In this document: positions 58 through 63,260 of the stretch, piece by piece | How positions within the stretch are numbered: position 1 is the first letter of the stretch | Layout of the letters: every line of letters begins with the position of its first letter | NCBI GenBank assembly: GCA_035510735.1 | Contig: DATKGN010000004.1 | Location: forward strand, 92,705-156,704 | Reading direction: 5' to 3' | Source: Patescibacteria group bacterium | Lineage (GTDB): Bacteria; Patescibacteriota; Microgenomatia; UBA10105; UBA927 | Length of the DNA: 64,000 nt | Notes under the pieces: model-generated | Databases searched by the model: none | What the model was told of the DNA's origin: nothing | The model's input: the letters and a program-made list of their open reading frames with translations, nothing else | Translations under genes and position numbers: made by a program

Positions 58-984
58 ATGAAGTCGAATATATTTATCAAGTATCAAACAAAAGATTCTG
101 GTGGTTTTGATTTAACCACAATTGGAGAATCGTTTATAGGGATGGATTCTAATTTAAAGGATTTTTTTGAACTTTCTGGAATCGATGGCGAGCTTTTAGT
201 TAAAACTGAAAAAATATCTGAGGGTTCAGTATTAACTCATCAAGTTATTCATCTAGCTACATCGATGCCTTTTCATGACATACGTGAGTTGTTGGATTTT
301 TTATACGTCGTTGGAGCAGCAGAATATAAGATAGGGTCTGATTTTTTTCAGGCATTTGGCAGTGGATATAAAACAGTCAATGATTTTTTCAAGGAAAATC
401 CTTTGATTCTTGCTTCGATAGAATTGTTCCTAGGATATTATTTTACAAAATTAATGGACGCAGCTTCTTCTCAAAAGAATGGTCCAAAAAGTGACAATTC
501 TAATAGAAATATTCCGATGCGATATGCGAACGGGCTTCATAGAATGATTTTAGAGGGCAAATTTAGGAGAACGTTAAAACCGATAGTTGAAGGGAGCGCA
601 AGTGAAATAATTATTGGTAATAATCTTGAATTAAAAGATTCCTCACAAATAAACAGTGCAAATTTTGAGAACTATCTTCCAGAAGAAGAAAAAATCCTTC
701 CTGAGCTTGGAAATGGTACAACACATACATTTTTAGGGGAACTACTTGCTATACAGAGCACCAAGGGAGAAGTACTTAAGTTTAGGATTCACAACATTGA
801 TGAAAGATTTAATTTATTTACTGCATATCCAGCAGATGGTATGAATACAGAAAATTATATTCAATATTATAAAAAAGCAGTTAATATAACTGCTCAGGTA
901 ATTCGCGATTCGCTTTACAAAAAGCCAGAGTTGCAGATTTTATCAATAGAATTGACTCAACGAGACATGTTTGAGGGAAAATAA
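58..984 (+). CDS. hypothetical protein, translationally coupled to hsdR (14-nt overlap)
   Basis: 308-aa ORF with no recognisable motif. Its 3' end overlaps the hsdR start. AT-rich, like the rest of the island. Confidence 0.45.
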   Translation: MKSNIFIKYQTKDSGGFDLTTIGESFIGMDSNLKDFFELSGIDGELLVKTEKISEGSVLTHQVIHLATSMPFHDIRELLDFLYVVGAAEYKIGSDFFQAFGSGYKTVNDFFKENPLILASIELFLGYYFTKLMDAASSQKNGPKSDNSNRNIPMRYANGLHRMILEGKFRRTLKPIVEGSASEIIIGNNLELKDSSQINSANFENYLPEEEKILPELGNGTTHTFLGELLAIQSTKGEVLKFRIHNIDERFNLFTAYPADGMNTENYIQYYKKAVNITAQVIRDSLYKKPELQILSIELTQRDMFEGK

Positions 985-3925
985 ATATATGAAATTTAAC
1001 GAACAATATACAGTCGAAAAACACGTTATCAAATTCCTTTCCACAAATTTGGGTTATGAGTATATTGAACCTGATGAATTTGCTGAATTGAGAAGTTTGG
1101 AAAGTGAATACCTGATCGTTTCCCATCTTGCGGAAGCTATAAAGCGGATCAATAAAATTACTGATGATACAGAAGTACAAAGCGTTATTAGAGAAATAAA
1201 AAAAATTGATACAAACGAAGGTTTCCTAAAGCTCCTACGAGATGGCGTAAACCTTAAAGACACATTAACAGGTAAGATGCATGATTATCTGGTTGTTGAT
1301 TACGACAACATTGAAAATAATCGCTTCGTAGTGACCAATCAATTCTATTTTGAGGGCAATCTGGAAAATATAAGACCTGATATTTTAGTTTTTCTAAATG
1401 GTATTCCAATCGTTGATATTGAGGCAAAAAGCCCTACTGCTTCTACAACTGTTAGTTACGAAAATGCTATTGGTCAGATAATCCGCTATCAACGAGTAGC
1501 TATGAAACTATTCTGGCCGAATTGTTTTAATGTCGCGACAGATGGTTTAAAAACCGTTTATGCCACCACTTTCGCTCCAGAGCAGGATTTTTTGCAATGG
1601 AAAGACGAAGAACTTGAAAAAAAGCTCGATGGGCAGCTTGAAATGACTCTGACGTCTTTATTGGCAAAAGAAAGGTTATTAGACATAATCAAAAACTTTA
1701 TTGTTTTTGAGCAAACAAAAGATGGTCGAGTCAAAAAGATAGCTCGTTACCAACAGCTTCGTGCTACCAATAAAATTGTTGAACGAGTACAGGAAGGAAA
1801 AAAGAAACGAGGCTTAATCTGGCATACACAAGGATCAGGAAAATCTTTAACCATGTTTTTTGCCGCTTGGAAGCTTAGATTCGATAAGACACTCAAGAAT
1901 CCAAAAGTATTTGTTCTGGTTGATCGTATTGACCTTGATAACCAGATTTACGATTCATTCATCAATACTGGTGGTAAAAACGTGATTCGGGTTACTTCCC
2001 AGCGTGATCTCGCAAAAAAGATTACTAATGATGAGAGAGGAATTTTTATCTCTACCATTGAGAAGTTTAATGAGCTTCCCCTGCATCTTGACAATCCTAA
2101 TGAAAATATCATCGTTTTGTCTGACGAAGCTCACCGATCAAACGAGGGCGTAGCTGGAATTAAACTAAGAGATTCCATGCAAAAAGCCTTTTTCTTCGGC
2201 TTTACAGGTACGCCGATTGATAAAACAACTCTAAATACTCATCGAAACTTTGGACAAGAAGGTGAACGCTATCTTGATTACTATTCTATTCAACAGGCTA
2301 TTGATGACGGTGCAACACTGCCCGTAACGTATGAGGCTCGTCTTTCGAAATTCTTTATTGATGAACAAAAAATTGACCAACAATTTGACGAAATGACAAT
2401 CGATTTATCCCCAGAGCAAAAACAGTTAGTAATGCGACGTTATGGCAAAAAAGAGGCTCTTGTAAAGCTCGATAAACGCATGAAAGCTGTCGCACAAGAC
2501 ATTGTGGATCATTATAGACTCTACATCGAACCGAATGGTTTTAAGGCGCAAGTCGTCTGCTATGACCGAGAAGCTACAGCTAAATTCAAACAATTATTTG
2601 ATGAACTTATTCCAGCAGAATGGACAGAAGTTGTTTACTCACCCGGTGATCCGAACAGCGATCCAGAGAACTTGAGGAAATACAATACCAGCAAAGCTCA
2701 AAAAGAAAAGATTATTGATAAATTCAAAGATCCAAAAAGTTCTCTTAAATTACTTTTGGTCTGCGACATGCTTTTAACTGGATTTGATGCTCAAATTGAG
2801 CAAGCGATGTATTTGGATAAACCTTTACGAGATCATAACCTTTTGCAGGCTATTGCTCGTACAAATCGTGTATATCCAAACAAAGGGTGTGGAAAGATAA
2901 TTGATTACTACGGAATCACTAGAAACCTCTACGAAGCTCTTAACTTTGATGAAAGTATTATTGACTCTGCACTTATTGACCTTGATTCCCTTAAAGAAGA
3001 ATTTCTTGAGGTTCTTAACGAAATAAGAGAGATTTTTACTGGCATTAATCAAGAAGACCCATCAATTGAAAATTTGAGGCGATGCTTAAAAATCTTTATT
3101 GATAACGAAGGAAAACAACGCTATTTTACTGATAAATACTCCAGATTGAAGCTATTATTTGAAGTTTTGTCACCTGATCCGTTCCTTGCTGATTATATTA
3201 GGACATTCGAATGGATTACGAGCGTTTATATCGCCTTCCTTAATGATTTTAGACAAGAAAACTTGACTTTACAGGCTTTTCGAAGCGGTGACATTCCAAC
3301 TTTCGGAGAATACGGAGAAAAAGTTAAGAAACTGATTCAGGAACAGATTGATTATGAAGGAATCACAAAAAATTTCAGAGAGCTAAGGATCAATGATATC
3401 TATACTCTTGAGCGACTCGACAAGATGGAGGATGAAGAAAAAGCCTTGAATCTTGAAAAAATGCTCAAGCAAGAAATTTCTATTAACGTTGACACAAATC
3501 CTATATTTCAGAAATTCAGTGAGCGATTAACAGCTATCCGAAAAGAGTTTGAACAACACCAGATTGATCTTTCCGAAAGAATTAAGCGTTACTACGACTT
3601 GATGAACGATATTAAGAGCAAAGCAGACGAAGCCAAAGAAATGGGGCTTAATTTACGAGAATACGGACTGTTCGTTATATCTCAGGAATTTTTATCTAAA
3701 ACAGATCAACCAGTTCTATTAGCGTTATCTAAAGACCTTTCGAAAAGATTAGAGTCTATTCTTGATGAAGGTTGGCAAAATTCATCCAAACGAGAAGAAT
3801 TTCTTAAAGGTGTCAAGCAAATTATTCAAGAGCTTATCCTAAAAGACTATAAAGGTAAAATACAAGTCGAGGATTTCCCTAAATTTTTAAACAGACTTGT
3901 TGATATTGTTATTAAAAAATTCTGA
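971..3925 (+). CDS. hsdR: type I restriction enzyme R subunit (HsdR)
   Basis: N-terminal PD-(D/E)XK motif (RPDILVFLNGIPIVDIEAKS). SF2 motifs GSGKSLT (I), LSDEAHRS (II, DEAH) and QAIARTNR (VI). 984 aa, typical HsdR size. Confidence 0.85.
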   Translation: MRENKYMKFNEQYTVEKHVIKFLSTNLGYEYIEPDEFAELRSLESEYLIVSHLAEAIKRINKITDDTEVQSVIREIKKIDTNEGFLKLLRDGVNLKDTLTGKMHDYLVVDYDNIENNRFVVTNQFYFEGNLENIRPDILVFLNGIPIVDIEAKSPTASTTVSYENAIGQIIRYQRVAMKLFWPNCFNVATDGLKTVYATTFAPEQDFLQWKDEELEKKLDGQLEMTLTSLLAKERLLDIIKNFIVFEQTKDGRVKKIARYQQLRATNKIVERVQEGKKKRGLIWHTQGSGKSLTMFFAAWKLRFDKTLKNPKVFVLVDRIDLDNQIYDSFINTGGKNVIRVTSQRDLAKKITNDERGIFISTIEKFNELPLHLDNPNENIIVLSDEAHRSNEGVAGIKLRDSMQKAFFFGFTGTPIDKTTLNTHRNFGQEGERYLDYYSIQQAIDDGATLPVTYEARLSKFFIDEQKIDQQFDEMTIDLSPEQKQLVMRRYGKKEALVKLDKRMKAVAQDIVDHYRLYIEPNGFKAQVVCYDREATAKFKQLFDELIPAEWTEVVYSPGDPNSDPENLRKYNTSKAQKEKIIDKFKDPKSSLKLLLVCDMLLTGFDAQIEQAMYLDKPLRDHNLLQAIARTNRVYPNKGCGKIIDYYGITRNLYEALNFDESIIDSALIDLDSLKEEFLEVLNEIREIFTGINQEDPSIENLRRCLKIFIDNEGKQRYFTDKYSRLKLLFEVLSPDPFLADYIRTFEWITSVYIAFLNDFRQENLTLQAFRSGDIPTFGEYGEKVKKLIQEQIDYEGITKNFRELRINDIYTLERLDKMEDEEKALNLEKMLKQEISINVDTNPIFQKFSERLTAIRKEFEQHQIDLSERIKRYYDLMNDIKSKADEAKEMGLNLREYGLFVISQEFLSKTDQPVLLALSKDLSKRLESILDEGWQNSSKREEFLKGVKQIIQELILKDYKGKIQVEDFPKFLNRLVDIVIKKF

Positions 3926-4497
3926 TGAAACGACAGATAAGCTTACACAATAAAGTCATCAACTACTCAATCCGCAGGAGCAGGAGAGCCAAGCGGATGA
4001 GGTTAGCCGTCTATTGCGACGGTAATTTTATTGTTACTGTTCCCCAGATGTTTCCCTCTAACTCAGTTGACAGTTACGTAATTGCAAAATCACAATGGGT
4101 TATTTCCAAGCTCGATTTTTTTGAAGGACTAAACAAGAAGCAAAAATTAACTCTTGGGACTGATGGATATGATAAGTATAAGGAAAAAGCCTTAGAAATG
4201 GTTACAGAGAGGCTTACAGCTATTAATAACAAGCACTATAAATTAATGTTTAATAAGATTACTATCAAAAGTCAGAAAACACGCTGGGGAAGCTGTTCAA
4301 AGAAACAAAATCTTAACTTTAACTATAAAATTCTGTTCCTACCTCCCAAAATGCGGGATTACATCATGGTGCATGAGCTCTGTCATTTAAAAGAATTTAA
4401 TCATGCTAGCCGATTTTGGAGGCTTGTAGCAAAAGCTATGCCAGACTATACGAAAATTATTGGTGATTTGAAAGAAAAAGGTTTAACAATATCGTGA
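3925..4497 (+). CDS. DUF45/YgjP-like zinc metallohydrolase (HEXXH)
   Basis: HELCH (HEXXH) motif near the C-terminus. Start overlaps the hsdR stop (ATGA). This family commonly follows hsdR. Confidence 0.65.
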   Translation: MKRQISLHNKVINYSIRRSRRAKRMRLAVYCDGNFIVTVPQMFPSNSVDSYVIAKSQWVISKLDFFEGLNKKQKLTLGTDGYDKYKEKALEMVTERLTAINNKHYKLMFNKITIKSQKTRWGSCSKKQNLNFNYKILFLPPKMRDYIMVHELCHLKEFNHASRFWRLVAKAMPDYTKIIGDLKEKGLTIS

Positions 4498-5112: not shown

Positions 5113-6594
5113 ATGACGCTGTCTAAATCAGATTATCTTCTTTTCCTCAAACACCCCGCGTGGCTTTGGTTAAAAAAGCATGACAGACGAAAGCTGCCGC
5201 CCGTTGATGAAAATCTTCAAGCTGTCTTTGATGCCGGCCACATGTTTGAAAAGTATGCAGAGAAGTTATTCCCCGGCGGCGTTACTCTTGGGTTTTCTGA
5301 AGATGATTTTGATACGTATCTGAGTTTACCAGCACGAACGACACAGGCATTACGAGATGGCGCGACGACTATTTTCCAGGGGCGCTTTGAAAGCAACAAT
5401 ATAACGTGCATCTGCGATGTGGTGGTCAAAGTCAACGATTCAACCGTTGACCTCTATGAGATTAAATCCAGCACTGAAGCCAAAGAGCTCCACGAACATG
5501 ATCTCGCGTTTCAGATGATTGTGCTTGAAAGTTGCGGATATACCGTACGTACCATTAAAGTACTGCATGCCAACAATACGTATGTCCGTCAGGGAGCCAT
5601 TGACCCACAGCAACTGGTCATGTCTACGGATATCACGGAAACGGTGAAGGAGATGCGGGAAGATACTAAGTATCACATCACAAAAGCGCTGGAGGTGATG
5701 GCGGCACCGACCATTCCGGATATTTCGCCGATCCATGCCCAGTTTCAGTCATTGGGCGAATGGATAGAAATTTACAAGACATTCCATTCGGTGTCAGCCG
5801 GAAGCATTTATAGTCTGTGTCGGCTCAATGTGAAGCTTATTGAAGAGCTTGAGGATCGGCATATCGAAATGATTGCAGATATTCCTGAGGATATTGCACT
5901 GCGTCCCCAACAGAAGTTGCAGGTTCGCGCAACGAAAGAAAACAAGGTTCTTATTCGAGCATCCGACATTCGCACATTTCTCTCGCAATTTGTGTTTCCG
6001 CTCTACTTTCTTGACTACGAAACGCTCGCAAATGTGGTGCCGGAGTTTGATGGTACCCGTTCGTATCAGCAGGTACCATTCCAGTACTCGCTCCATATAT
6101 TGGATGCGCCCGGCAGCGAGGTGCGGCACGTGAGCTATCTTCATACAGAAAAAACAAACCCTGTCCTTCCGTTAAGTCAATCACTCCTATCCCATATCGG
6201 TACCACGGGGACTGTCCTCGTGTGGCATGAAAGTTTTGAAAAAGGACGCAATACCGAAATGGGTGAATTATTCCCTGAATTTAAAGCGTTTTATAGGGAG
6301 GTAAATAAGCGGATCATTGACTTGAAGATTCCCTTTTCCGAAGGATGGTATGTCCATAAAGACTTTTTAGGAAGTGCATCGATTAAAAAAGTATTGCCCG
6401 TCCTTGTTCCTGAACTTTCCTACACTGCCCTGGATATTCATGAAGGGAATTCGGCACAGCGTCTTTGGATGGAGACGGTGCTGGAAGGAGAACACGCGGC
6501 AGAACGCGCTAAAGTCTTCCAAAATCTCGATAAGTATTGTACACTGGACACACGTGCGATGGTACGCATTTACGAGAAATTGACTGCAATATGA
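5113..6594 (+). CDS. DUF2779-family PD-(D/E)XK (RecB-like) nuclease
   Basis: N-terminus LSKSDYLLFLKHPAWLWLKKH matches the characteristic DUF2779 start. D..DLYEIK nuclease motif. About 490 aa, typical for the family. Confidence 0.55.
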   Translation: MTLSKSDYLLFLKHPAWLWLKKHDRRKLPPVDENLQAVFDAGHMFEKYAEKLFPGGVTLGFSEDDFDTYLSLPARTTQALRDGATTIFQGRFESNNITCICDVVVKVNDSTVDLYEIKSSTEAKELHEHDLAFQMIVLESCGYTVRTIKVLHANNTYVRQGAIDPQQLVMSTDITETVKEMREDTKYHITKALEVMAAPTIPDISPIHAQFQSLGEWIEIYKTFHSVSAGSIYSLCRLNVKLIEELEDRHIEMIADIPEDIALRPQQKLQVRATKENKVLIRASDIRTFLSQFVFPLYFLDYETLANVVPEFDGTRSYQQVPFQYSLHILDAPGSEVRHVSYLHTEKTNPVLPLSQSLLSHIGTTGTVLVWHESFEKGRNTEMGELFPEFKAFYREVNKRIIDLKIPFSEGWYVHKDFLGSASIKKVLPVLVPELSYTALDIHEGNSAQRLWMETVLEGEHAAERAKVFQNLDKYCTLDTRAMVRIYEKLTAI

Positions 6595-14159: not shown

Positions 14160-14220
14160 TTCGTACGCAGACTTGCCTGTCTACCTGTGCAGACAGGCGG
14201 AGGTCAGGGGAGTATACTTC
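14160..14220. repeat. intergenic hairpin + promoter-like module, copy 1 (CCTGTCTACCTGTGCAGACAGG ... GGGGAGTATACT)
   Basis: Inverted repeat cctgtct/agacagg at about 14177-14198 followed by ggggagtatact, 24 nt upstream of the DUF2207 ATG. Near-identical copies at about 19272, 22882 and 24533. Confidence 0.6.
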
Positions 14221-18278: not shown

Positions 18279-19244
18279 ATGAAAAATAAATCCATAAAAA
18301 ATGACATCGTTATATATCAGGCTAAATCCGGTGCAATTGAGCTGAAAGGCGATTTTGCAAAAGAAACCATCTGGGCGACGCAGGCTCAGCTTGTTGATAT
18401 TTTTGAAATTGATCAGTCTGTAGCGTCAAGGCATATCAGTAACATATTTAACGATGGCGAGATATCAAAAGAAAGCAATATGCAAAAAATGCATAATGCA
18501 AATTCTGACAAACCAGTAATCTTATATTCACTTGATGTGATATTAGCCGTTGGTTATCGTGCTAATTCAGCACGAGCTATCCGCTTTCGTAAATGGGCGA
18601 CGCAGGTATTGAGAAACCATTTGATTAATGGTTATACGATTAACCGTTCACGCATCGCCAAAAATTACGGTAAATTTCTTAAAGCCGTTGAGCAGATAAA
18701 ACAGTTATTGCCTGAAAGCGGAAATGTGAGCACGGACAGCGCACTGGATCTCGTTTCGCTTTTTGCAAGCACGTGGATATCCCTTGAAGCATATGATACG
18801 TCGGTTTTGCCGGTGGCAGGCGCGACGCAAAAACAGGTTTCACTCACTGCACAGAATCTGGAGTCGGTTTTGAGAGAATTTAAGCATGAGTTGATGAAAC
18901 GGAAACAGGCGAGTGAGTTGTTCGGCCGGGAGCGGCAAGCGGATAGCTTTACGAGCATTGTCGGCAATGTATTTCAGTCATTTGGCGGGCGCGATGTGTA
19001 CCCGAGTGCAGAGGAAAAAGCGGCACATTTGTTGTATTTCGTCGTAAAAGATCATCCGTTTACCGACGGGAACAAACGGAATGGTGCGTTTGTGTTTATC
19101 TGGATTCTTAAGAAAGCGCGCCTCCTGAACGTTGGCCGTCTGACTCCTGAAGCTCTGACAGCGCTTACGTTATTGGTCGCAGAGAGCGATCCGAAAAATA
19201 AAGACAGAGTGATCGGGCTTATTTTGCTGCTTCTGAAAAAATAA
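18279..19244 (+). CDS. RhuM-family N-terminal domain fused to a Fic/Doc domain
   Basis: N-terminus matches the RhuM virulence-family start (IVIYQAKSGAIELKGDFAKETIWATQAQLVDIFE). C-terminal HPFTDGNKRNG Fic/Doc motif. Confidence 0.6.
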   Translation: MKNKSIKNDIVIYQAKSGAIELKGDFAKETIWATQAQLVDIFEIDQSVASRHISNIFNDGEISKESNMQKMHNANSDKPVILYSLDVILAVGYRANSARAIRFRKWATQVLRNHLINGYTINRSRIAKNYGKFLKAVEQIKQLLPESGNVSTDSALDLVSLFASTWISLEAYDTSVLPVAGATQKQVSLTAQNLESVLREFKHELMKRKQASELFGRERQADSFTSIVGNVFQSFGGRDVYPSAEEKAAHLLYFVVKDHPFTDGNKRNGAFVFIWILKKARLLNVGRLTPEALTALTLLVAESDPKNKDRVIGLILLLLKK

Positions 19245-19271
19245 TTAGAGCGCTTCCATTGACGATGGTAA

Positions 19272-19330
19272 ATGTATTTCGAACTAAGCTTGCCTGTCTA
19301 CCTGCGCAGACAGGCGTAGGTAGGGGATTT
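19272..19330. repeat. intergenic hairpin module, copy 2
   Basis: tgtatttcgaactaagcttgcctgtctacctgcgcagacaggcgtaggtagggg. The inverted repeat is identical to copy 1 apart from one loop base. Confidence 0.6.
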
Positions 19331-19426
19331 TGCCTCATTATCTCTAAAACACCGTGAATAGAGCCTATTTTTCACCCAAATTCATGATAAATTGACAAAA
19401 CACCGTGAATATGATAGTATACAGCC

Positions 19427-20317
19427 ATGGCTACTTCACGATTGATCACCGATAGGATACGGATATTAAAAACGCAATATGACCGTATGCGCGCCGGAAA
19501 AGATGCATTACTTGTGCTTATTGATGAAGCGGAGGTAGCGGAAAGCGTCTATAACTCCAACGCAATTGAGAACTCGACGCTCAGTCTCCCTGAAACGGAA
19601 AAAATATTGCTTGAAATGGAAGTTTCCCGGAATATTAGTGTGCGCGAAGTGTACGAAGCAAAAAATTTAGCCCGCGTAAGTGCTTATGTACGGGCATTAT
19701 CGAAAGACCGTGAACTGTCTAAAGAACTTATATGTGCACTTCACGGGATGCTTCTGGTTGGAATAGACGATACCATTGCCGGACGATTCAGGAAGGCAAA
19801 CGAATTTGTTCGCGTAGGCACATTTATCGCGCCAGCGCCTGAACATATAGATTTATTGATGGACCGGATGTTAGAAGAATATACGAGCAATCTGACGACG
19901 TATCCTCTGGATGCGATCGCGAGGTTTCATCTGGAGATTGAAACAATTCATCCGTTTAATGACGGCAACGGTCGTATCGGAAGAGCACTCATTAACCTAC
20001 AACTACAGCGCATCGGATTTCCAAACGTTATTATCCGGGATAAAGAAAAGCAGGAATATTATCGGGGATTTACGACGTACCGTGATGACAAAAAGACGCA
20101 AATCATGGAACGCGTGCTCACAAGAGCGATAATTGAATCACTGCACAAGAGGATTACCTATTTACAGGGAGAAGAAATACTGACGCTCGCGGCCTATGTC
20201 AAAGAGCATGGGTTCGGTGCTCCCACTGTATTTAATAAAGCACGCCGGCAAACAATCCCGGCCTTCCGCGAAAAGGGAGTGTGGAAAATAGGGAAAAATT
20301 ACAATCCTAAATCCTAA
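19427..20317 (+). CDS. Fic family protein (AMPylase/adenylyltransferase-type)
   Basis: Canonical HPFNDGNGRIGR Fic motif. Confidence 0.75.
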   Translation: MATSRLITDRIRILKTQYDRMRAGKDALLVLIDEAEVAESVYNSNAIENSTLSLPETEKILLEMEVSRNISVREVYEAKNLARVSAYVRALSKDRELSKELICALHGMLLVGIDDTIAGRFRKANEFVRVGTFIAPAPEHIDLLMDRMLEEYTSNLTTYPLDAIARFHLEIETIHPFNDGNGRIGRALINLQLQRIGFPNVIIRDKEKQEYYRGFTTYRDDKKTQIMERVLTRAIIESLHKRITYLQGEEILTLAAYVKEHGFGAPTVFNKARRQTIPAFREKGVWKIGKNYNPKS

Positions 20318-20466: not shown

Positions 20467-21195
20467 ATGACCATATCGGAAGCAGACAGTTATTTACCGG
20501 AGAGCCGTCAATTACAAGACGTTTTTGAGATTGCTCAAAAGACGCATTTTACTATCGGCACAACGCTTGCGGAGATTCAACGTGCCCCGTTTGAAAAGGT
20601 TTCCCGGGCGACTTCGGATTTCATCACGACATCCGTTGCCTATTTTGCCAACCGCGGTCACTCGGAGCTTGCGCAAACCATCGGAACGTGCGCATGGAGG
20701 ATGATAAACAGGAAAGAAGTATTCCCGATGTATACGGAGAATATTCCCGTTGTCTTACACAACTATTTTGAAATTCCTGTTAACAAAATTCTCACAATGA
20801 CCGCTCCGGGAGAACCGGTATCTTTAATAGGTGTATTTCCGAAGACCGAAATTAATAAAGTTGCAGGCTTTATCATATTTCCGCCCGAGTTTCCGCTCCG
20901 CGTGATGACCAGACCAGTCGAAGCGCTGGCCACTATATCCAGTATGGCGTCGCAAATCACGGATTATTCAAACGGCAGACTGTATATCGACGCTCCGAAT
21001 ATAAAGCTACGAGCACAGGCTTTTGAAGCAGATTTTTTGCTCCACGCCCGTCGGGAAATACCGGATTTGGAATTGTCTCCTGTATTTTCACCGCTTTTAC
21101 AACTTTATCCCAAGGGGATGGAGAGCTTAGTTCCGAAACAACGATACAATCCCAACGATAATCTTCCGCCAATCAGCTTTGTCACTCTTCCATAA
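20467..21195 (+). CDS. hypothetical protein
   Basis: 242-aa ORF with no motif. Coding-like composition. Confidence 0.4.
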   Translation: MTISEADSYLPESRQLQDVFEIAQKTHFTIGTTLAEIQRAPFEKVSRATSDFITTSVAYFANRGHSELAQTIGTCAWRMINRKEVFPMYTENIPVVLHNYFEIPVNKILTMTAPGEPVSLIGVFPKTEINKVAGFIIFPPEFPLRVMTRPVEALATISSMASQITDYSNGRLYIDAPNIKLRAQAFEADFLLHARREIPDLELSPVFSPLLQLYPKGMESLVPKQRYNPNDNLPPISFVTLP

Positions 21196-24532: not shown

Positions 24533-24598
24533 TGTATTTCGAGCGTGAGCTTGCCTGTCTACCTGTGCAGACAGGCGCAGCCAGGGGGAGTATAATTT
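24533..24598. repeat. intergenic hairpin + promoter-like module, copy 4
   Basis: gtgtatttcgagcgtgagcttgcctgtctacctgtgcagacaggcgcagccagggggagtataatttt. The TATAAT lies about 13 nt before the RadC-like ATG. Confidence 0.6.
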
Positions 24599-24608
24599 TA
24601 ATGTATTT

Positions 24609-25292
24609 ATGCACAAGGATTTATACAAAAACGCCGGTCATAGAAAACGATTAAGAGACAGATTTTTACAATCAGGTTTTGATGGATTCGTAGACTACGA
24701 AATTATTGAACTACTTTTAACTCTTGGCACCCCTAGAAAAGACTGTAAACAGACGGCGAAAAATGCGATTAAAAAGTTTGGAGGGCTATATGGTACACTC
24801 GATGCCTCCCTTGAGGAATTACAAAAAATCAAGGGGATTGGACAATATAACGCATTCGGTTTGAAGTTGTTTCAAGCAATTACTGAGCGTCTTGCAAGAG
24901 AGCAAGTACCAAAAAAAATTACACTAAATTCTTTAAAGTCAGTAGCAAATTATTTACAGATGTCTATTGGTCGAAAAAAGAAAGAGTATTTTGTTATGTT
25001 GTCTATCGATTCACGGAACAATTTAATAAAGGTTAGTAATATTTCAGTTGGTTCGCTTAATGAAAGCGTAGTTCATCCAAGAGAGGTTTTTAAAGAAGCA
25101 ATTCAATCGTCCGCGGCACAGATATTAATCGCACATAATCATCCGTCAGACAATCCTGAAGCATCGCCCGAAGATGTTGCGCTCACACGACGCCTTGTGG
25201 AAGTGGCAAGAATTTTCGATATTCAGTTACTTGATCATATAATCGTAACTAAGAATAATTTTTTTAGTTTAAAAGAACAAAATTTAATTTAA
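24609..25292 (+). CDS. RadC-like JAB/MPN domain protein (UPF0758)
   Basis: HNHPSDNPEASPED JAMM-like motif. Helix-hairpin-helix GIGQYNAFG. Confidence 0.75.
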   Translation: MHKDLYKNAGHRKRLRDRFLQSGFDGFVDYEIIELLLTLGTPRKDCKQTAKNAIKKFGGLYGTLDASLEELQKIKGIGQYNAFGLKLFQAITERLAREQVPKKITLNSLKSVANYLQMSIGRKKKEYFVMLSIDSRNNLIKVSNISVGSLNESVVHPREVFKEAIQSSAAQILIAHNHPSDNPEASPEDVALTRRLVEVARIFDIQLLDHIIVTKNNFFSLKEQNLI

Positions 25293-25296
25293 GTTT

Positions 25297-25650
25297 ATGT
25301 CTGACATAAAAAAACTTACGAGAAAAATTATGAAATTTAGGGATGATCGAGATTGGAAGAAGTTTCATAATCCAAAAGATGTCGCCTTGTCACTAGTATT
25401 AGAGGCGACTGAGGTTTTAGAAAAATTTCAATGGAAAAATCAAAAGGAAACTGAAGAATATATAAGAACAAACAAGGCGGATATCGGCGAAGAACTAGCA
25501 GACGTTTTATATTGGATTTTACTAATGAGTTATGATCTCGATATAAATATTAACCGGGCCCTAGAAAATAAGATTAAGAAAAATGAAAGACATTATCCCG
25601 TAGATAAAGCAAAAGGCAAACATGTTAAATATACGGAGCTTAAAATATGA
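25297..25650 (+). CDS. MazG-like nucleoside-triphosphate pyrophosphohydrolase
   Basis: All-alpha NTP-PPase signature EATEVLEKF...EEYI...GEELADVLYWIL (EExxE...E..D). Confidence 0.65.
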   Translation: MSDIKKLTRKIMKFRDDRDWKKFHNPKDVALSLVLEATEVLEKFQWKNQKETEEYIRTNKADIGEELADVLYWILLMSYDLDININRALENKIKKNERHYPVDKAKGKHVKYTELKI

Positions 25651-27494
25651 TTCTCTACGATGCGGATATTGAACATTTTAGTGAAGATGTAATGCAGAAT
25701 CGCATTGCTGACCGCGCATCCGAAAAATATCAAGAATATTATAAGAGGCAACCAGGAAAGTCTGAATATCGTTCGTGGGCAATTTCATTGGCAATTTTAA
25801 ATAACAGCTTCATGTATGCCGGACTTAAAGACAATCATATAGTTGTCGAATATGAACTGCCATTTGCTTCACAAAGGATTGATGTATTATTGTTCGGACA
25901 TGATAGTGTCGGAAAAGAAAATATAGTAATAATGGAACTTAAACAATGGTCAAACGATAGCGTGAAAGACTCTGCTTCAGAAGGAAACATAATCGTTAAT
26001 TATGGAAGATTTGAAAAGGAACGACCTCATCCAGCTCTACAGGTGCAGGGTTATTATTTTGGCCTAAAGGATTTTGTTAAAATTTTTGATGAAACGAATG
26101 CACCAGAATTGAGCGCATCAGTATATGCACACAACTATTCAAAATACAAAGACGCTGTTTTACTTTCTCCTAAATATTCTGAATTAATCAAAACATTCCC
26201 CATATTTACAAAAGAAGACGCAATCGAACTAGGCAGATATCTTAATGAACGTCTGCACAACGGTAAGGGACAAATGGTTTATGAGCATTTTGCTAGGAGT
26301 CCGATTGGCCCATCAAAAAAACTTCTAGATCACACAAGTGAAATGATTAATAAGCGACAGATATTTAATTTAATAGATGATCAAATTGTTGCTTACAATA
26401 CCATAAAACACAAAGCGAAAGAGTTGGCTACAACAAAAAAGAAATCTGTTGTAATTGTAAAAGGTGGTCCAGGTACTGGGAAGTCTGTTATAGCATTAGA
26501 GGTTATGGGGGAACTATTGCGGCAAGGAAAAACTGTTTTTCATGCTACTGGAGGTTCAGCATTTACGAACACACTAAGGAAGATAGTCGGTATACGGGCG
26601 AAAGGTCTTTTTAAATTCTTCTTTAATTTCACCAAACTTCCTGATAATTCTGTCGACGTATTAATTTGCGATGAAGCTCATCGTATCCGCGAAAATAGTA
26701 ACGACTACGGCGTTCCATTCATGTTCAAATCACGTAATCCACAGATTGATGATTTAATACGTCCTGCAAGGCTATGCATATTCTTTATAGATGAGTTTCA
26801 GGTAGTAAGACCGAAAGAAGTTGGAAGTGTTGCAATGATTAAGGAGGCTGCTAAACGATTTGGGGTTAATGAATCTGAGATTTCTGAATTTGAGTTAAAA
26901 ACACAATTTCGCTGTTCAGGCTCAGATGCGTATTTGCAATGGATAGATAATATTTTGAATATTTGTGATTCTGATATTGCCTACATTGATCCTAAAATGG
27001 AATTCCGTATTTTTGACTCGCCATCAAAAATGTTGGAAGAAATTAGAATTAAAAATCGTGAGAAAAAGAACTCAGCAAGAATTGTTGCTGGATTTTGTTG
27101 GCCTTGGAGCAATCCGAACGCTGATGGTTCTCTTGTAAACGATGTAAAAATTGATAACTTTGAAATGCCTTGGGAGCAAAAAAATCAATTCTGGAAATGG
27201 GCAACTGACGATTCAGGAATGGAACAAGTTGGTACTGTATATACGGCACAGGGATTTGAATTTGACTACATAGGTGTAATCTTTGGAAAAGATTTAATCT
27301 ACGATGGTAATAAATGGGTTGCTATTCCAGAAAATTCTTATGACACTCAAGTTAAAAGAAAAAATTCAAATTTAGTAAATCATTTGAAACACATTTACAG
27401 AGTATTAATGACGAGAGCGCACAGAGGAGTCTTTGTTTATTTTATGGACAAGAGCACTGAGAAATATTTTAAAGAAAATTTGAATAGCAAATAA
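25647..27494 (+). CDS. DUF2075-type P-loop ATPase/helicase-like protein with N-terminal PD-(D/E)XK nuclease domain
   Basis: N-terminal IDVLLF...IMELKQ (D-E-K). Walker A GGPGTGKS. LICDEAHRI (DEAH-like). C-terminal YTAQGFEFDYIGVI. The 4-nt overlap with the MazG-like gene implies co-translation. Confidence 0.7.
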   Translation: MILYDADIEHFSEDVMQNRIADRASEKYQEYYKRQPGKSEYRSWAISLAILNNSFMYAGLKDNHIVVEYELPFASQRIDVLLFGHDSVGKENIVIMELKQWSNDSVKDSASEGNIIVNYGRFEKERPHPALQVQGYYFGLKDFVKIFDETNAPELSASVYAHNYSKYKDAVLLSPKYSELIKTFPIFTKEDAIELGRYLNERLHNGKGQMVYEHFARSPIGPSKKLLDHTSEMINKRQIFNLIDDQIVAYNTIKHKAKELATTKKKSVVIVKGGPGTGKSVIALEVMGELLRQGKTVFHATGGSAFTNTLRKIVGIRAKGLFKFFFNFTKLPDNSVDVLICDEAHRIRENSNDYGVPFMFKSRNPQIDDLIRPARLCIFFIDEFQVVRPKEVGSVAMIKEAAKRFGVNESEISEFELKTQFRCSGSDAYLQWIDNILNICDSDIAYIDPKMEFRIFDSPSKMLEEIRIKNREKKNSARIVAGFCWPWSNPNADGSLVNDVKIDNFEMPWEQKNQFWKWATDDSGMEQVGTVYTAQGFEFDYIGVIFGKDLIYDGNKWVAIPENSYDTQVKRKNSNLVNHLKHIYRVLMTRAHRGVFVYFMDKSTEKYFKENLNSK

Positions 27495-27640: not shown

Positions 27641-28312
27641 ATGTTTAAGGTATCTCCCTCGGACTTCGCGTACCTGTATGAAGAATGCAAGCATTGTTAT
27701 TATCTCAAGGTCAGGAGGGGAATTACACGACCGCAGGCGGTGATGCCGGGGATCTTTACCGCGATCAATACGCGGCTGCAAGGCATGCTGGTTGGAAAGG
27801 ACTTGCGGACACTTTCTCCGCTACTCCCCGAGGGGTTAGTTGAGAGTCAGGAGGGGTTTGTGGAGTCGGAGAAAGTTCCGGGGACAGAGGTGTATATCAA
27901 AGGAAAATATGACTTACTCGTTCTCCAGCCCGACGGCACGTACATGCTTGTCGATTTTAAATTAAGTCAGCCGAGCGAGGATAAAATTCCCAAGTATCAG
28001 ACCCAGCTCCAGGCGTATCACTATGCGTTTTTGCACCCGGCCAAAGGTGAAATTAAAAATATTACGAAGATGGGGCTTATCATCATGTATCCCGATAAAG
28101 TGAAATTTGAAGAGGGGACGGCCATCCTTTCTTTCCCGCCGAAGTGGATGGGTATTGATATTAACACGGATAAATTTTTAGACTTTATCAATTCGGTAAG
28201 TACGCTTCTCGAGGGTCCGACCCCGCCTGAAAATCCCAACTGCAAGTGGTGCAAATACAGGCATTTAGGCGAAGCGCTCAATTATCCGTCATCCTCCATC
28301 GATCCGTTTTAA
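27641..28312 (+). CDS. Cas4-like Fe-S PD-(D/E)XK nuclease (standalone)
   Basis: N-terminal CKHC and C-terminal CKWC cysteine pairs bracket a DLLVLQPDGTYMLVDFK nuclease core. Confidence 0.5.
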   Translation: MFKVSPSDFAYLYEECKHCYYLKVRRGITRPQAVMPGIFTAINTRLQGMLVGKDLRTLSPLLPEGLVESQEGFVESEKVPGTEVYIKGKYDLLVLQPDGTYMLVDFKLSQPSEDKIPKYQTQLQAYHYAFLHPAKGEIKNITKMGLIIMYPDKVKFEEGTAILSFPPKWMGIDINTDKFLDFINSVSTLLEGPTPPENPNCKWCKYRHLGEALNYPSSSIDPF

Positions 28313-55056: not shown

Positions 55057-55722
55057 TTATTGCAGTGGGTGAACGAAGTAAACGCTTCGCGTAGGATCGT
55101 CTATGTTTGCGCGGTGACCCGCTGTCAGATTCCAAACGTGCGTATTATTGTCATTGTCGACAAGCGCGAATTTGAGAGATCCTGTTTTAACGGTTATGGA
55201 CATATCGGAATCAATGACGTTAATGATCGCTGTCCCGGAATTAATTGATACCAATGTGTGTAAAGCGCGAACAGACATGGGATACCCGCTATCCGTGACA
55301 TCGTACTGAATTTTGCCGCTTTTTTGCTCCAGAACCATATCCGTGGGAAACAGATTAGCAAACGCAAGCTCCGCGTTTTGGTTAAGTGTAGCGGTTACGA
55401 TTCCGCTTACCGTCGCGACGGCTATCCCATTTTCATCGGTTGCGACAGATTCGCCGGTCAGGATTTGCCCACCAGGAGTAGCATCCTGATACGAATCATT
55501 AGTACGCGTCAGCTGCGTTACTTTGTTGTGGAGAATTGTTAACGTGCCGCTTACCGATTGAGATGGGGGAGTGAGAATAAACGGCGTCGGTGAAACCGCC
55601 GGTGATTGAGACGTCATTGAAGTTGGAGTATATGAATTATTGGTATGGCGGATATATTGGAATCCCCACACAGCGATAACGCCGATTGCAAAGAAGAGGG
55701 TGGTAAGTAAGAAGTTTTTCAC
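55057..55722 (-). CDS. secreted hypothetical protein
   Basis: N-terminal TM/signal. T/S-rich region. Confidence 0.35.
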   Translation of the reverse strand: MKNFLLTTLFFAIGVIAVWGFQYIRHTNNSYTPTSMTSQSPAVSPTPFILTPPSQSVSGTLTILHNKVTQLTRTNDSYQDATPGGQILTGESVATDENGIAVATVSGIVTATLNQNAELAFANLFPTDMVLEQKSGKIQYDVTDSGYPMSVRALHTLVSINSGTAIINVIDSDMSITVKTGSLKFALVDNDNNTHVWNLTAGHRANIDDPTRSVYFVHPLQ

Positions 55723-55793: not shown

Positions 55794-56091
55794 TCCCCTG
55801 TAGCTCAACGGTAGAGCGGCTTCCTGTCACAAGGCAGCGCCAAATAGCAATATTTGGATGAACATCGGGCTAATTCGGGGGACTCCTGCACCGCGTTGGT
55901 TTAGGACAATCCCGAGCTAAATTTCTTTTGCAACGCAAATGGACTCGTCCTGAGCGAGGTCGAAGGATAAATGTGTAGAGACTATATACCCGACTCCCGA
56001 TTTTATCGGGATGATGAGATAGTCCAGTCTTTTTGGTAACAGAAAGCAAACTGTAAGAAGAAGGTTGCAGGTTCGAATCCTGCCGGGGGAG
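55794..56091 (+). tRNA. tRNA-Asn(GUU) interrupted by a group I intron (exons 55794-55827 and 56054-56091)
   Basis: The joined exons give a canonical 72-nt cloverleaf. Acceptor UCCCCUG/CGGGGGA, D-stem GCUC/GAGC, anticodon stem GCUUC/GAAGA, loop CUGUUAA, T-arm GCAGG-UUCGAAU-CCUGC, discriminator G. Very similar to E. coli tRNA-Asn. Confidence 0.7.
55828..56053 (+). ncRNA. group I (self-splicing-type) intron in the tRNA-Asn anticodon loop, ORF-less, about 226 nt
   Basis: 5' exon ends in U and intron ends in G. P1 hairpin cugu/gcag with a U.G at the splice site. P-like aauucggggga. P7 candidate ggacu (55941-45) with aguCC in the S-like element gagauaguCC (56016-25). 55842-55855 aaatagcaatattt resembles the start of the Tetrahymena LSU intron. 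Confidence 0.6.
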
Positions 56092-56118
56092 CAATTTCTA
56101 CGGATTTCTTCGGATTTT
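56086..56118. repeat. 33-bp direct repeat, copy A (overlaps tRNA-Asn 3' end), putative attL-like site
   Basis: ggggagcaatttctacggatttcttcggatttt. Identical copy at 61616-61648. Confidence 0.7.
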
Positions 56119-56143
56119 ATTACCCTCTGATATACTGCTATTA

Positions 56144-57919
56144 GTGAATAAAGAACTCCTCGAAATACTTTCAGGGTTTAAGCGAACGGTACGGCTCATG
56201 GATAGGTCAGAGAAGATCACGTTGGTTGTGGCCTCCGTTCTCATGCTTATAACCGGCGTGCTGACCAACTTGCCTGCAATAATTTTAGGCCGGTTAGTCG
56301 ACACATTGGTCGGTCATCCGAGTATTCAATTTAGTGCAGCGATTCCGTTTATCGGTCTCATTGTTGTCATCATCATTATCCGTGAGGTGCTCACAGTTAT
56401 CAGAAAATATCTTGTGGAAAACATTGCTGCGCTTACGGAAAAGAAACAAACCGTCGCCGTCATTGACCATCTCTTAAAAACAGATATAGCTGTGATAAAT
56501 GAACAACAGATTGGCTCATTACATGGAAAGGTATTCCGCTCCATTGAAGGTCTGGTGAGTCTGATTAAACTTGGTTTTCTGGATTTTTTTCCCGTATTTT
56601 TTAGTGGCATTGCGGCTATAGCAATAGCATTTTTGCAGAAGCCGCTCCTGGCGTCGGTGATGATACTCGTCATACCCACCGGTCTTTTTATCATCATAAA
56701 ACAAATATCTTCACAAAAGGGCTTACGGGTCGCATTTCTTCGGAAACAGGAGACGATTGATGGAGCTGTGGTAGAAATGCTGGGAGGCCTGGAAACGGTG
56801 AGGGTCGCCAACACCACTGATCAGGAGGTTGGGAAAATCGAGCTCGTCGCGGAAGAGTTACGTAAAAAAGAGATTAAGCATCATATAGCCATGGCCCTGT
56901 TTGATTCTGCAAAATACCTGAATGAGGGATTTTTCTATATTTTAGTTATCAGTCTATCCATACTGTTTTCAGCTCAAGGACTCATCAGCCGCGGCGACAT
57001 ACTTGTATATTCCATACTTTTTTTGAGTATCACCGGCCCACTGCGGGAGATTCACCGGATCCTTGATGAGGCCCATGAAAGTTCCATCAGGGTAAATGAC
57101 TTATATGATCTATTAGGAGAGCCTATTGATGAATCATTTAAAACTACCGCAGGAGGAGTGTCTTCTTTGCCAAAAAGAAAAAATGTCATTGAAATTAATA
57201 AATTATCCTTTAGCTATCCGACAAAGAAGATTAAAGTTTTGGACGGTATCAACTTAACTATTAAATCAGGAGAAAAGATTGGTATCGCAGGTGCCTCTGG
57301 ATGTGGAAAGAGCACACTCATAAAAATCCTTTTACGGCTAGTCCACGGTTATTCCGGCAATGTTACTCTTTTTGGCAAAGACTTGCAGAGTATAACGAGG
57401 GATGAAATTGGCCAGAAAATTGCCTACGTCCCGCAAAAAGATTACATTTTTTCCGGAACGATAAAAGAAAATATCATATATGGGTGTTTCCGGACAGATG
57501 TTTCCGAAGAAGAAGTTATATCTGCGGCTAAGAAGGCTCATGTTTATAAAGAAATCGTTGATTCCTTGGGCGGTTTGAATGGCAGAGTTGGAGAAAATGG
57601 TAATAATCTCAGCGGTGGCCAAAAACAGAGGTTGGCAATAGCCAGGCTGATACTAAAGTCACCGGAGTTATTTATCTTTGATGAAGCAACTTCCGCCCTT
57701 GATAATACCAATGAAGATCTGATTCAGAAAAATATAGAAGAGCTCTATAAGGATAAAACGATGATTACGATTGCACATCGGCTAACCACGCTCAAAAATA
57801 CCGACCGAATATTTGTGCTTGGTCAAGGGCATATAGTGCAAGAAGGAACGTTTGAGGAGTTATCCCATAAAAAGGGGCTTTTCCAGGATTTTTTACAGCA
57901 AAGGATAGAAAAGGTCTAA
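56144..57919 (+). CDS. ABC transporter ATP-binding/permease fusion (type I exporter, peptide/bacteriocin-exporter-like without peptidase domain)
   Basis: 6-TM N-terminal domain. Walker A GASGCGKST, LSGGQKQRLAIARL, Walker B IFDEATS. Confidence 0.8.
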   Translation: MNKELLEILSGFKRTVRLMDRSEKITLVVASVLMLITGVLTNLPAIILGRLVDTLVGHPSIQFSAAIPFIGLIVVIIIIREVLTVIRKYLVENIAALTEKKQTVAVIDHLLKTDIAVINEQQIGSLHGKVFRSIEGLVSLIKLGFLDFFPVFFSGIAAIAIAFLQKPLLASVMILVIPTGLFIIIKQISSQKGLRVAFLRKQETIDGAVVEMLGGLETVRVANTTDQEVGKIELVAEELRKKEIKHHIAMALFDSAKYLNEGFFYILVISLSILFSAQGLISRGDILVYSILFLSITGPLREIHRILDEAHESSIRVNDLYDLLGEPIDESFKTTAGGVSSLPKRKNVIEINKLSFSYPTKKIKVLDGINLTIKSGEKIGIAGASGCGKSTLIKILLRLVHGYSGNVTLFGKDLQSITRDEIGQKIAYVPQKDYIFSGTIKENIIYGCFRTDVSEEEVISAAKKAHVYKEIVDSLGGLNGRVGENGNNLSGGQKQRLAIARLILKSPELFIFDEATSALDNTNEDLIQKNIEELYKDKTMITIAHRLTTLKNTDRIFVLGQGHIVQEGTFEELSHKKGLFQDFLQQRIEKV

Positions 57920-58677: not shown

Positions 58678-58801
58678 GTTATTTTTAATCGCCTAATTAG
58701 TATAATAAATAGTCCGAACATCCTCTACCGCTTGGAGCATTTTAATTTTGGAGCATATTGATGCCCCAATTCTTATTACAGTTTACTTCCAAAGGCGATT
58801 A

Positions 58802-59662: not shown

Positions 59663-59833
59663 TCAGAAATTTAAGATTAAATAGTTTCGAACATCGTCTA
59701 CTGCTCGGAGCAAAAGTTGATTATCGGCGTAATTTAGTATTGTATCAAAGGGTTTTATAGCTTCATAGTGCACCGTTTCACCATCTACCTTAAGGTTCTG
59801 AAGTACAAGTTTAACTAACTGACGTTTTTTCAT
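59663..59833 (-). CDS. small ORF (56 aa), hypothetical. An upstream in-frame start-less remnant suggests a decayed gene
   Basis: ATG preceded by AAGGTG. Translation MKKRQLVKLVLQNLKVDGETVHYEAIKPFDTILNYADNQLLLRAVDDVRNYLILNF. Not in the supplied ORF track (<60 aa). Confidence 0.2.
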   Translation of the reverse strand: MKKRQLVKLVLQNLKVDGETVHYEAIKPFDTILNYADNQLLLRAVDDVRNYLILNF

Positions 59834-61615: not shown

Positions 61616-61648
61616 GGGGAGCAATTTCTACGGATTTCTTCGGATTTT
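61616..61648. repeat. 33-bp direct repeat, copy B (putative attR-like site)
   Basis: Identical to 56086-56118. Lies at the far edge of the AT-rich 5.5-kb segment. Confidence 0.7.
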
Positions 61649-61671
61649 CTTGCTTCTGTTATAATTTCTCC

Positions 61672-63201: not shown

Positions 63202-63260
63202 TTAGATTATACAGTAATAGGTCCGAACATCCTCTACAGTTTGGAGCGCATTGGACTAAA

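Follow-up and report, generated by a model that had tools for sequence, protein, structure and literature searches.

Two genes for Fic-fold proteins lie side by side in the window (the whole 64,000-nt stretch of DNA that was analysed), and our best reading, to which we give a probability of roughly 70%, is that they are adjacent but independent single-gene modules that ended up in one variable accessory island. On this reading each would be a self-contained enzyme of a conflict or defence type. The upstream gene, A, encodes a RhuM-type module fused to a Doc-like domain, and the downstream gene, B, encodes a Fic protein of the self-inhibited class.

The RhuM-N/Doc fusion encoded by gene A

18279-19244, + strand: gene A, RhuM-N/Doc fusion protein of 321 aa (ORF, Pfam, PDC-S23 HMM)
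18345-18623, + strand: N-terminal RhuM-type winged-helix module of A, about residues 23-115
18846-19241, + strand: Doc-like minimal Fic domain of A, about residues 190-321
19053-19085, + strand: Doc-type catalytic motif of A, HPFTDGNKRNG, H259-G269

The initial annotation had read in this gene an N-terminus of the RhuM family joined to a Doc-type C-terminal motif and had proposed a Pfam search for RhuM and Fic domains; run on A and B, that search puts both proteins above the curated cut-offs. In A, Virulence_RhuM (PF13310) scores 62.7 bits (gathering cut-off 33.7) and Fic/DOC (PF02661) 41.7 bits (cut-off 24; residues 197-277) within the same chain, with HPFTDGNKRNG at residues 259-269. The PF13310 alignment pairs A residues 69-135 with profile positions 10-79 of 252 only; positions 80-252 are absent, so that full-length canonical RhuM is not matched, and a BLASTP alignment to canonical RhuM (35% identity over the N-terminal ~130 residues) ends at residue 131. 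By these alignments, A keeps only the winged-helix N-terminal ~130 residues of RhuM, and a linker and a Doc domain replace the C-terminal two thirds.

The match to the PADLOC candidate PDC-S23 (model PDLC04965) runs over nearly the full length of both (E 4.3e-102; residues 3-320, profile positions 3-324 of 327), PHROG matches likewise back the family identities of A and B, and the score against NCBIfam TIGR01550 (DOC_P1), 24.5 bits, lies below the cut-off of 38.65. Judged by sequence, A is a member of a widespread RhuM-N/Doc family, which NCBI names 'virulence protein RhuM/Fic/DOC family protein' and PADLOC lists as PDC-S23; the fusion was already described in 2013 by Anantharaman et al. (PMC3710099). 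Its relatives number more than 7,400 (420 clusters at 50% identity with E ≤ 1e-30) and span at least 596 species genomes of many phyla, with 60-79% identity to A in Patescibacteria and 44% on a Pseudomonas aeruginosa plasmid. The RhuM and Fic Pfam pair is present in all 240 A homologues among the matches listed. Residues 259-267, HPFTDGNKR, have the Doc-type form HxFx(D/N)(A/G)NKR, and across 132 family sequences D263, G264, N265 and R267 are invariant while conservation of H259 and K266 is 90% or higher.

A first structure model of A, from 59 sequences, was too poor (pLDDT 58). With 73 proteobacterial homologues added, pLDDT rose to a moderate 69, residues 115-168 of the helical linker remaining below 50, and the model has a Doc-like minimal Fic fold (Foldseek probability 0.99). 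An in-chain inhibitory motif of the form (S/T)xxxE(G/N) was sought in A and none was found; SGAIEL (residues 17-22) is a mere resemblance and sits in a predicted beta-hairpin. Operator-like palindromes upstream of A homologues have no common layout, and the excess hairpins there resemble terminators of the preceding genes. PADLOC's PDC-S05 models, which come in many lengths, carry the same N-module as A. With the N-module being all that A shares with canonical RhuM, these varied lengths suggest an N-module with swappable C-terminal domains.

Gene B and the spacer upstream of it

19292-19315, + strand: copy 2 of a hairpin module in the A-B spacer, 8-bp stem and 8-nt loop, GCCTGTCT-ACCTGCGC-AGACAGGC
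19346-19360, + strand: distal copy of a 15-nt direct repeat, AAAACACCGTGAATA, upstream of B
19392-19420, + strand: promoter-like site of B, TTGACA-17-TAGTAT (TG-extended)
19427-20317, + strand: gene B, class II (self-inhibited) Fic protein of 296 aa (Pfam, PDB, PADLOC)
19556-19573, + strand: inhibitory-helix motif of B, SNAIEN, S44-N49, of the (S/T)xxxE(G/N) type
19949-19984, + strand: canonical Fic motif of B, HPFNDGNGRIGR, H175-R186
20180-20293, + strand: conserved C-terminal segment of B, residues 252-289, ...NAARRQxIPAFREKGVWKIG

The AMPylase-type motif earlier assigned to the second gene is found at B residues 175-186, within a Pfam Fic match of 76.5 bits, above the curated cut-off. It has the form HxFx(D/E)GNGRxxR, and a set of 120 sequences shows no variation at its H, P, F, D, G, N, G, R, G and R. 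The start at 19427 is favoured over a 276-aa gene call by the conserved N-terminus of the family. Among PDB sequences, FICD/HYPE come nearest to B (E 8e-21); in PADLOC, B matches PDC-S04 (E 7e-34) and, more weakly, SoFic (E 1.7e-30), residues 41-247. Against the NCBIfam SoFic equivalog NF046030 it reaches 27.6 bits, far under the cut-off of 550; these scores make B related to SoFic, yet not a SoFic equivalog.

SNAIEN, which precedes the Fic core in the chain, aligns with TVAIEG of FICD and is the sole (S/T)xxxE(G/N) motif across proteins A and B; within the B family S44-E48 are invariant and N49 occurs in 119 of 120 sequences. The conserved motifs thereby place B among class II Fic proteins, with its own inhibitory glutamate helix and an invariant catalytic motif. 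The protein is highly conserved across Patescibacteria and its C-terminal segment is near-invariant in the family. For this segment there was no match in Pfam or in the PDB profile search and no detectable similarity to known DNA-binding domains; we infer only that it could be a DNA-binding element.

A and B are on the same strand, separated by 182 nt. A hairpin module had been noticed between them, and this copy is indeed one of three with identical stems in the window, where shuffles lead one to expect none; the flanks of the copies were aligned. Copy 2 was considered as a terminator of A and rejected: the terminator scan does not call it, and its fold is no better than that of shuffles (z -1.0). 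The proximal copy of the direct repeat (19397-19411) lies within the spacer of the promoter-like site of B. Between the end of the -10 element and the ATG lie 6 nt, so that, read from the sequence, there would be a very short leader or none. Two-copy repeats at a spacing of 51-52 nt were found in 21 of 79 B-family loci (at least 11 of 12 matches); other spacings give 0.09 loci on average. These spaced direct repeats in the promoter region of the B family are the one detail that is possibly new. The separate promoter-like site of B and the 182-nt spacer support independence of the two genes.

Partner genes, genomic context and competing readings

On first inspection no cognate antitoxin ORF was obvious, and ORFs below 60 aa in 19245-19426 had been named as the place to look; this spacer contains only ORFs of 25-39 aa, which overlap the repeat and are unconserved. 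We surveyed partner genes in 80 genomes with A and 80 metagenome loci with B, and no partner gene is conserved beside either. Small ORFs beside the A or B families are conserved in at most 3 of about 80 loci, and the small-ORF clusters that were found are near-identical contigs or pieces of neighbouring genes. An antitoxin of the Phd/YefM or a similar type is absent beside A in the window, and none is conserved beside A in the 80 genomes. The 145 immediate neighbours of A (80 loci) are spread over 121 Pfam families, of which the largest has 5 members, and the recurrent ones are HsdM upstream or HsdS downstream (7 of 80 loci) and Fic (4 of 80), with no other cluster. The missing antitoxin is a property of the whole A family. 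For B, the in-chain motif SNAIEN would explain why there is no separate antitoxin. Such a helix is no proof of harmlessness, since wild-type E. coli SoFic is reported to be toxic despite it and to be countered by a 47-aa downstream ORF, AS1 (PMC12249575). No conserved small ORF (≤450 nt, either side) accompanies the B family in 82 loci, and an AS1-like downstream ORF is thus absent there.

A and B sit in a variable accessory island, on what is probably a Patescibacteria chromosome of Gottesmanbacteria-like type. Neighbours in the island are two DUF3800 genes, RadC, a MazG-like gene, a Nhi/AbiO/PDC-S41-like helicase and a PD-(D/E)XK nuclease, and these families recur in other combinations beside A or B homologues; GC drops to 0.36-0.38 at 22-28 kb of the window. 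The initial annotation had stated that RhuM and Fic/Doc proteins are frequent in defence islands and hsd loci, which agrees with the literature (PMC3710099; bioRxiv 10.1101/2024.01.29.577857) and with the HsdM or HsdS genes adjoining A homologues. Here A and B are outside any hsd operon; a single hsd gene, HsdR, was found in the window, at a distance of 14 kb. The initial annotation had also allowed that the motifs might fail HMM thresholds, or that the proteins might be housekeeping paralogs in conserved core synteny; the thresholds are passed and synteny is not conserved. The context of A and B is variable even among close relatives, and their distribution is patchy over phyla, taking in plasmids and a transposon; plasmid-borne A homologues are found in small-gene arrays or carried as cargo of Tn3. 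Recognisable defence genes are missing beside most homologues of A and B. The 242-aa gene downstream (20467-21195) was left out of the feature, since searches of Pfam, NCBIfam, PADLOC and PHROG gave no match for it and no homologue of it was found near other A or B genes.

The A-B arrangement is not a conserved pair, and the adjacency is rare. A B-family gene is near A in 2 of 80 A loci, a full A gene is near B in none of 80 B-family loci (plain RhuM in one), and the closest B relatives, 84-88% identical, are in other contexts. The two exceptions are a Saccharibacteria MAG (L018) with A then B across a 241-nt gap, and a locus (L078) in which B, a DUF2779 gene and A are tightly packed on one strand. 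The adjacency would then reflect both genes having landed in one island, with no joint mechanism.

P1 Doc is the toxin of the Phd-Doc type II toxin-antitoxin pair and an EF-Tu kinase. By analogy, the Doc domain of A would phosphorylate a protein, most plausibly a translation factor, instead of transferring AMP to it. As the whole family goes without an antitoxin, A is probably silenced in cis; it may be released when the N-module meets a cue, which could be a phage protein or foreign DNA, and A would then combine sensor and effector in one chain, as an abortive-infection or conflict protein. The kinase activity, target, toxicity and anti-phage effect ascribed to A are extrapolated from P1 Doc, together with guilt-by-association reasoning. 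B, by analogy with FICD, would be an auto-inhibited AMPylase and possibly a deAMPylase too, with expression regulated at the 51-52-nt repeats, perhaps by its own C-terminal segment. PDC-S23 and PDC-S04 belong to the PADLOC PDC set of 145 putative defence candidates; the literature searched yielded no paper on PDC-S23 and no experimental anti-phage test of RhuM-type proteins.

A more ambitious combination of these ideas is tentative, and we hold it to be doubtful as a whole: the RhuM N-module may be a portable sensor for alternative effectors (the RhuM C-domain or a Doc kinase), the fusion an antitoxin-free single-chain abortive-infection kinase common in Patescibacteria, and B a member of a class II Fic family with a conserved autoregulatory circuit, in which two lineage-variable operator-like repeats are possibly read by the protein's own C-terminal segment.

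Chaperones or topoisomerases are regulated by FICD and some bacterial Fic proteins, and among the alternatives a role outside defence for A, B or both, though improbable, deserves the most weight. B could be a housekeeping AMPylase/deAMPylase acting on such a protein, and A a DNA-binding regulator or an effector on another cell. FICD being the nearest sequence to B, the strong conservation of B across Patescibacteria, the scarcity of defence neighbours, the small-gene arrays and Tn3 cargo of the plasmids, and the action of the RhuM-Fic protein BifA on a host protein (PMC6529018) all fit this; the shifts of context between close relatives, the patchy distribution with its plasmids and transposon, the recurrence beside RM and defence-type genes, and the matches of A and B to PADLOC defence-candidate models speak against it.

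It is very unlikely that A and B form a single two-gene system, in which one Fic protein modifies or restrains the other or two effectors are triggered together. The shared strand and short spacer, the two exceptional loci and the occasional Fic protein beside A would suit such a system, but B relatives live mostly apart from A in the counts given above, a promoter-like site and repeats of its own precede B, and each protein is self-contained. Least probable of all is that A is a classical Doc of a Phd-Doc-type pair whose antitoxin is an overlooked small ORF or is encoded elsewhere. The motif and fold of A are of the Doc type, and JGI labels its homologues 'prophage maintenance system killer protein'; yet the 71 nt between the upstream gene and A leave no room for an ORF, the short ORFs after A overlap the repeat and are unconserved, and no neighbour family recurs in 80 genomes.

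Significance and comparison with known systems

Since A and B are real but belong to large catalogued families and form no conserved pair, the finding is correct and ordinary: both are members of large named families, and their pairing is incidental. Function has been demonstrated for these families only in one streptococcal virulence study. A putative Doc-type kinase that never comes with an antitoxin raises the question of how its activity is restrained, and the P. aeruginosa plasmid homologue (WP_105446666.1) offers a route to a culturable host for that question. In the class II Fic family, the repeat layout offers a concrete candidate for a regulatory feature.

A is like PDC-S23 in domains, length, motif and full-length match, and nothing structural differs; the defining PADLOC instances lie inside hsd operons, whereas A here does not. 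Set beside P1 Doc, A has ~190 extra N-terminal residues (winged helix and linker), no Phd-type antitoxin gene and a score under the DOC_P1 cut-off. Canonical RhuM (Salmonella SPI-3 type; PF13310; PDC-S05) shares with A the N-terminal ~130 residues and, with the A family, an association with type I RM; its C-terminal ~200 residues are missing from A, with Doc in their place. [quoted passage not shown] It is the only characterised RhuM+Fic protein, and is reported to be a secreted, host-directed virulence factor acting on human cells rather than a defence protein (PMC6529018). B, at 296 aa, is shorter than the anti-phage SoFic (about 370 aa), has neither the TPR nor the membrane part of FICD, and differs from E. 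coli SoFic in that its family has no conserved AS1-like downstream ORF. As in FICD/HYPE and SoFic, a canonical Fic motif and an N-terminal (S/T)xxxE(G/N) helix are combined in the one chain of B.

Domain content and Fic class

The initial annotation reported a RhuM/Doc fusion and a second Fic gene, and both are present as forward-strand ORFs at the positions it gave:

18279-19244, +, gene A: ORF of 321 aa with Virulence_RhuM and Fic/DOC domains (Pfam)
19427-20317, +, gene B: ORF of 296 aa with a Fic domain (Pfam)

Its facts are correct, yet the locus is ordinary: the genes are two new members of catalogued families, and their adjacency is incidental. The RhuM N-terminus (62.7 bits) and Fic/DOC domain (41.7 bits) of gene A and the Fic domain of gene B (76.5 bits) all exceed curated Pfam thresholds, and the motifs hold at sequence level: Doc-like HPFTDGNKRNG at residues 259-269 of A, AMPylase-type HPFNDGNGRIGR at residues 175-186 of B. 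The genomic context is variable, which speaks against housekeeping paralogs in core synteny.

The Virulence_RhuM match in gene A spans profile positions 10-79 of 252 only, and a canonical 336-aa RhuM, which covers the whole Pfam RhuM profile, aligned by BLASTP to residues 1-131 (35% identity) and nothing beyond; the RhuM portion is the N-terminal module only. An AlphaFold2 model from 132 sequences (mean pLDDT 69) is usable for the N-module and the C-domain, and not for residues 115-168. The motif has the Doc signature, i.e. the second Gly is replaced by Lys and the distal Arg is absent; in 132 patescibacterial and proteobacterial family members, D263, G264, N265 and R267 are invariant, with H259 and K266 at least 90% conserved. 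Sequence searching with a profile of the family retrieved chains 9vzc and 3k33, both of the Doc family, and the gene A protein sequence contains no (S/T)xxxE(G/N) inhibitory motif. Gene A was not counted among the orthodox Doc toxins, since its score falls below the NCBIfam DOC_P1 cut-off.

In the PDB, FICD/HYPE are the closest relatives of gene B by sequence (E 8e-21), and the inhibitory TVAIEG of FICD aligns with SNAIEN at residues 44-49 of gene B. Among 120 family members, S44-E48 and the HPFxDGNGRxGR motif residues are invariant and N49 is kept in 119. This alignment and conservation mark gene B as a class II Fic protein, predicted to carry its own inhibitor within the same chain. Its last ~45 residues (NAARRQxIPAFREKGVWKIG) are near-invariant across the family and have zero matches in Pfam or PDB sequences; DNA binding by this segment is therefore a guess.

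Gene partners

The annotation found no obvious cognate antitoxin, and the absence extends well past this contig. We called ORFs around 80 genomic homologues of gene A and looked at the nearest two genes to either side. Immediate neighbours, 145 in all, are spread over 121 Pfam families, the commonest being N6_Mtase (5), ResIII/DEAD (4), Fic (4) and Methylase_S (3). All-against-all clustering of 274 proteins (two per side) recovered only HsdM/HsdS (7 loci together) and Fic (4 loci). No small ORF (25-130 aa, within 450 nt of the homologue) recurred in more than three loci, and those that did recur were HsdM fragments. Antitoxin absence is therefore a property of the whole gene A family and no annotation gap in the window.

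Nor are A and B a pair. A B-family gene occurs at only two of the 80 A loci: a Saccharibacteria MAG (L018), with A then B as in the window and a gap of 241 nt, and L078, ordered B homologue, DUF2779 gene, A homologue. Conversely, none of 80 metagenomic B-family loci has a full gene A, and one has a plain RhuM. The gene order of the window is common to contigs with identical gene B copies, while relatives of gene B 84-87% identical lie beside DUF4112 or Bcp, without gene A. The two genes also have separate promoter-like sites.

Upstream repeats and island genes

A promoter-like TTGACA-17-TAGTAT ends 6 nt before the gene B ATG. The exact 15-mer AAAACACCGTGAATA occurs twice upstream, 51 nt apart (within 19346-19411), its proximal copy inside the promoter spacer. 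Direct repeats at 51-52 nt spacing, with at least 11 matches in a 12-nt window, were found at 21 of 79 B-family loci, against a mean of 0.09 loci for every other spacing of 20-90 nt outside 49-53; the looser match (at least 10/12, 50-52 nt) gave 38/79. The repeat varies by lineage (CCGTGAAT, TAGTGAAT, CCGTTAAT and others, with a core like GTGAAT), and inverted copies frequently lie between the two direct ones. The pair is a conserved, putatively regulatory layout of the gene B family; nothing comparable was found upstream of gene A homologues.

The surroundings are an accessory mosaic. It comprises a Bcp peroxiredoxin, then A and B, an uncharacterised 242-aa gene, a pirin gene, two DUF3800 genes, DUF4112, RadC, and a tight cluster of MazG-like, helicase and nuclease genes; GC at 22-28 kb is 0.36-0.38 vs ~0.45-0.50 nearby, and housekeeping genes, e.g. 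HflX, follow. At 14 kb upstream of the A/B locus there is a type I HsdR gene.

Genes and hairpin copies around A and B
971-3925: type I restriction HsdR gene
3925-4497: YgjP-like metallopeptidase
5113-6594: DUF2779/Cas4-like nuclease (a DUF2779 gene also separates the Fic and RhuM-Doc homologues in L078)
14175-14198, +: hairpin copy 1
19292-19315, +: hairpin copy 2
20467-21195, +: 242-aa ORF directly after gene B
24553-24576, +: hairpin copy 3
24609-25292: RadC, 4.3 kb downstream of gene B
25297-25650: MazG-like gene (tight cluster)
25647-27494: SLFN/Nhi/AbiO/PDC-S41-like helicase (same cluster)
27641-28312: PD-(D/E)XK nuclease (same cluster)

Several of these recur elsewhere: MazG-like gene and helicase adjoin the A homologue in L012 and lie a few kb off in L074, a MazG-like gene adjoins it in L034, and RadC is directly downstream of the B homologue in three unrelated metagenome loci (L107, L121, L129). 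This recurrence is the pattern of island genes drawn from one common pool. Pfam, NCBIfam, PADLOC and PHROGs gave no match for the 242-aa ORF; it has no homologue close to A/B genes elsewhere and is confined to contigs with identical gene B copies.

The hairpin copy noticed between A and B does lie in the 182-nt spacer, one of three in the window (GCCTGTCT-N8-AGACAGGC; 0 expected by chance) with identical stems and the loop form GCCTGTCT-ACCTGYGC-AGACAGGC. The start codons of a DUF2207 gene and RadC come 33-36 nt after copies 1 and 3, respectively, and each of these copies is followed by the -10-like GGGGAGTATAMT. Homology between copies 2 and 3 extends further upstream (GTATTTCGARC-TRAGCTTGCC). 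Such a module might be an operator, a palindrome associated with promoters or a small dispersed repeat.

Two other families of short direct repeats occur in intergenic DNA near the window 3' end: D2 (58701-58738, 59674-59711, 63210-63247) and D3 (56086-56121 and 61616-61651, 97% identity). Rfam places a group I intron at 55813-56046 on the + strand (74 bits vs gathering score 50). It is flanked by an unannotated minus-strand ORF (55057-55722) on one side and an ABC transporter gene (56144-57919) on the other, and neither rRNA nor tRNA genes were detected in the window.

Family distribution and comparison with known systems

NCBI already names the gene A family "virulence protein RhuM/Fic/DOC family protein". 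More than 7,400 relatives came up by word-indexed searching, and each of the 240 homologues listed carries the same pair of Pfam domains. When 1.84 billion cluster representatives were searched exhaustively, 420 clusters reached E<=1e-30. Relatives are encoded in at least 596 species genomes, among them Patescibacteria, Nitrospirales, Gammaproteobacteria, Bdellovibrionales, Actinomycetota and one Woesearchaeota MAG. Full-length homologues are plasmid-borne in Pseudomonas aeruginosa (44% identity), Vibrio, Aeromonas and Legionella, the last adjoining a Tn3 transposase. On the P. aeruginosa plasmid NZ_CP052760.1 (L086) and a Vibrio plasmid (L087), the homologue ends a long same-strand array of small hypothetical genes; the layout recalls plasmid leading regions, and a role in plasmid establishment rather than host defence is a possibility.

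Gene A matches the full-length PADLOC model PDC-S23 (E 4e-102) and gene B matches the PADLOC models PDC-S04 (E 7e-34) and SoFic (E 2e-30), and scores far under the NCBIfam SoFic equivalog cut-off. The PDCs are 145 candidates chosen for embedding in BREX, DISARM or type I RM operons, and a defence or abortive-infection role for gene A or gene B would be guilt by association only. E. coli SoFic has a reported 47-aa downstream antitoxin (PMC12249575), whereas the gene B family lacks a counterpart, with no conserved small ORF flanking it at 82 loci. BifA of Streptococcus equi, a RhuM+Fic protein studied as a virulence factor, reportedly needs its Fic histidine for moesin phosphorylation (PMC6529018).

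P1 Doc is an EF-Tu kinase that holds ATP in inverted orientation and depends on the motif Lys; by analogy, gene A would be a kinase kept inactive in cis, with its N-module perhaps a sensor or targeting domain. A helix glutamate inhibits class II Fic proteins and, in FICD, supports deAMPylation as well; on that model gene B may be an auto-inhibited AMPylase/deAMPylase, possibly under repeat-mediated control.
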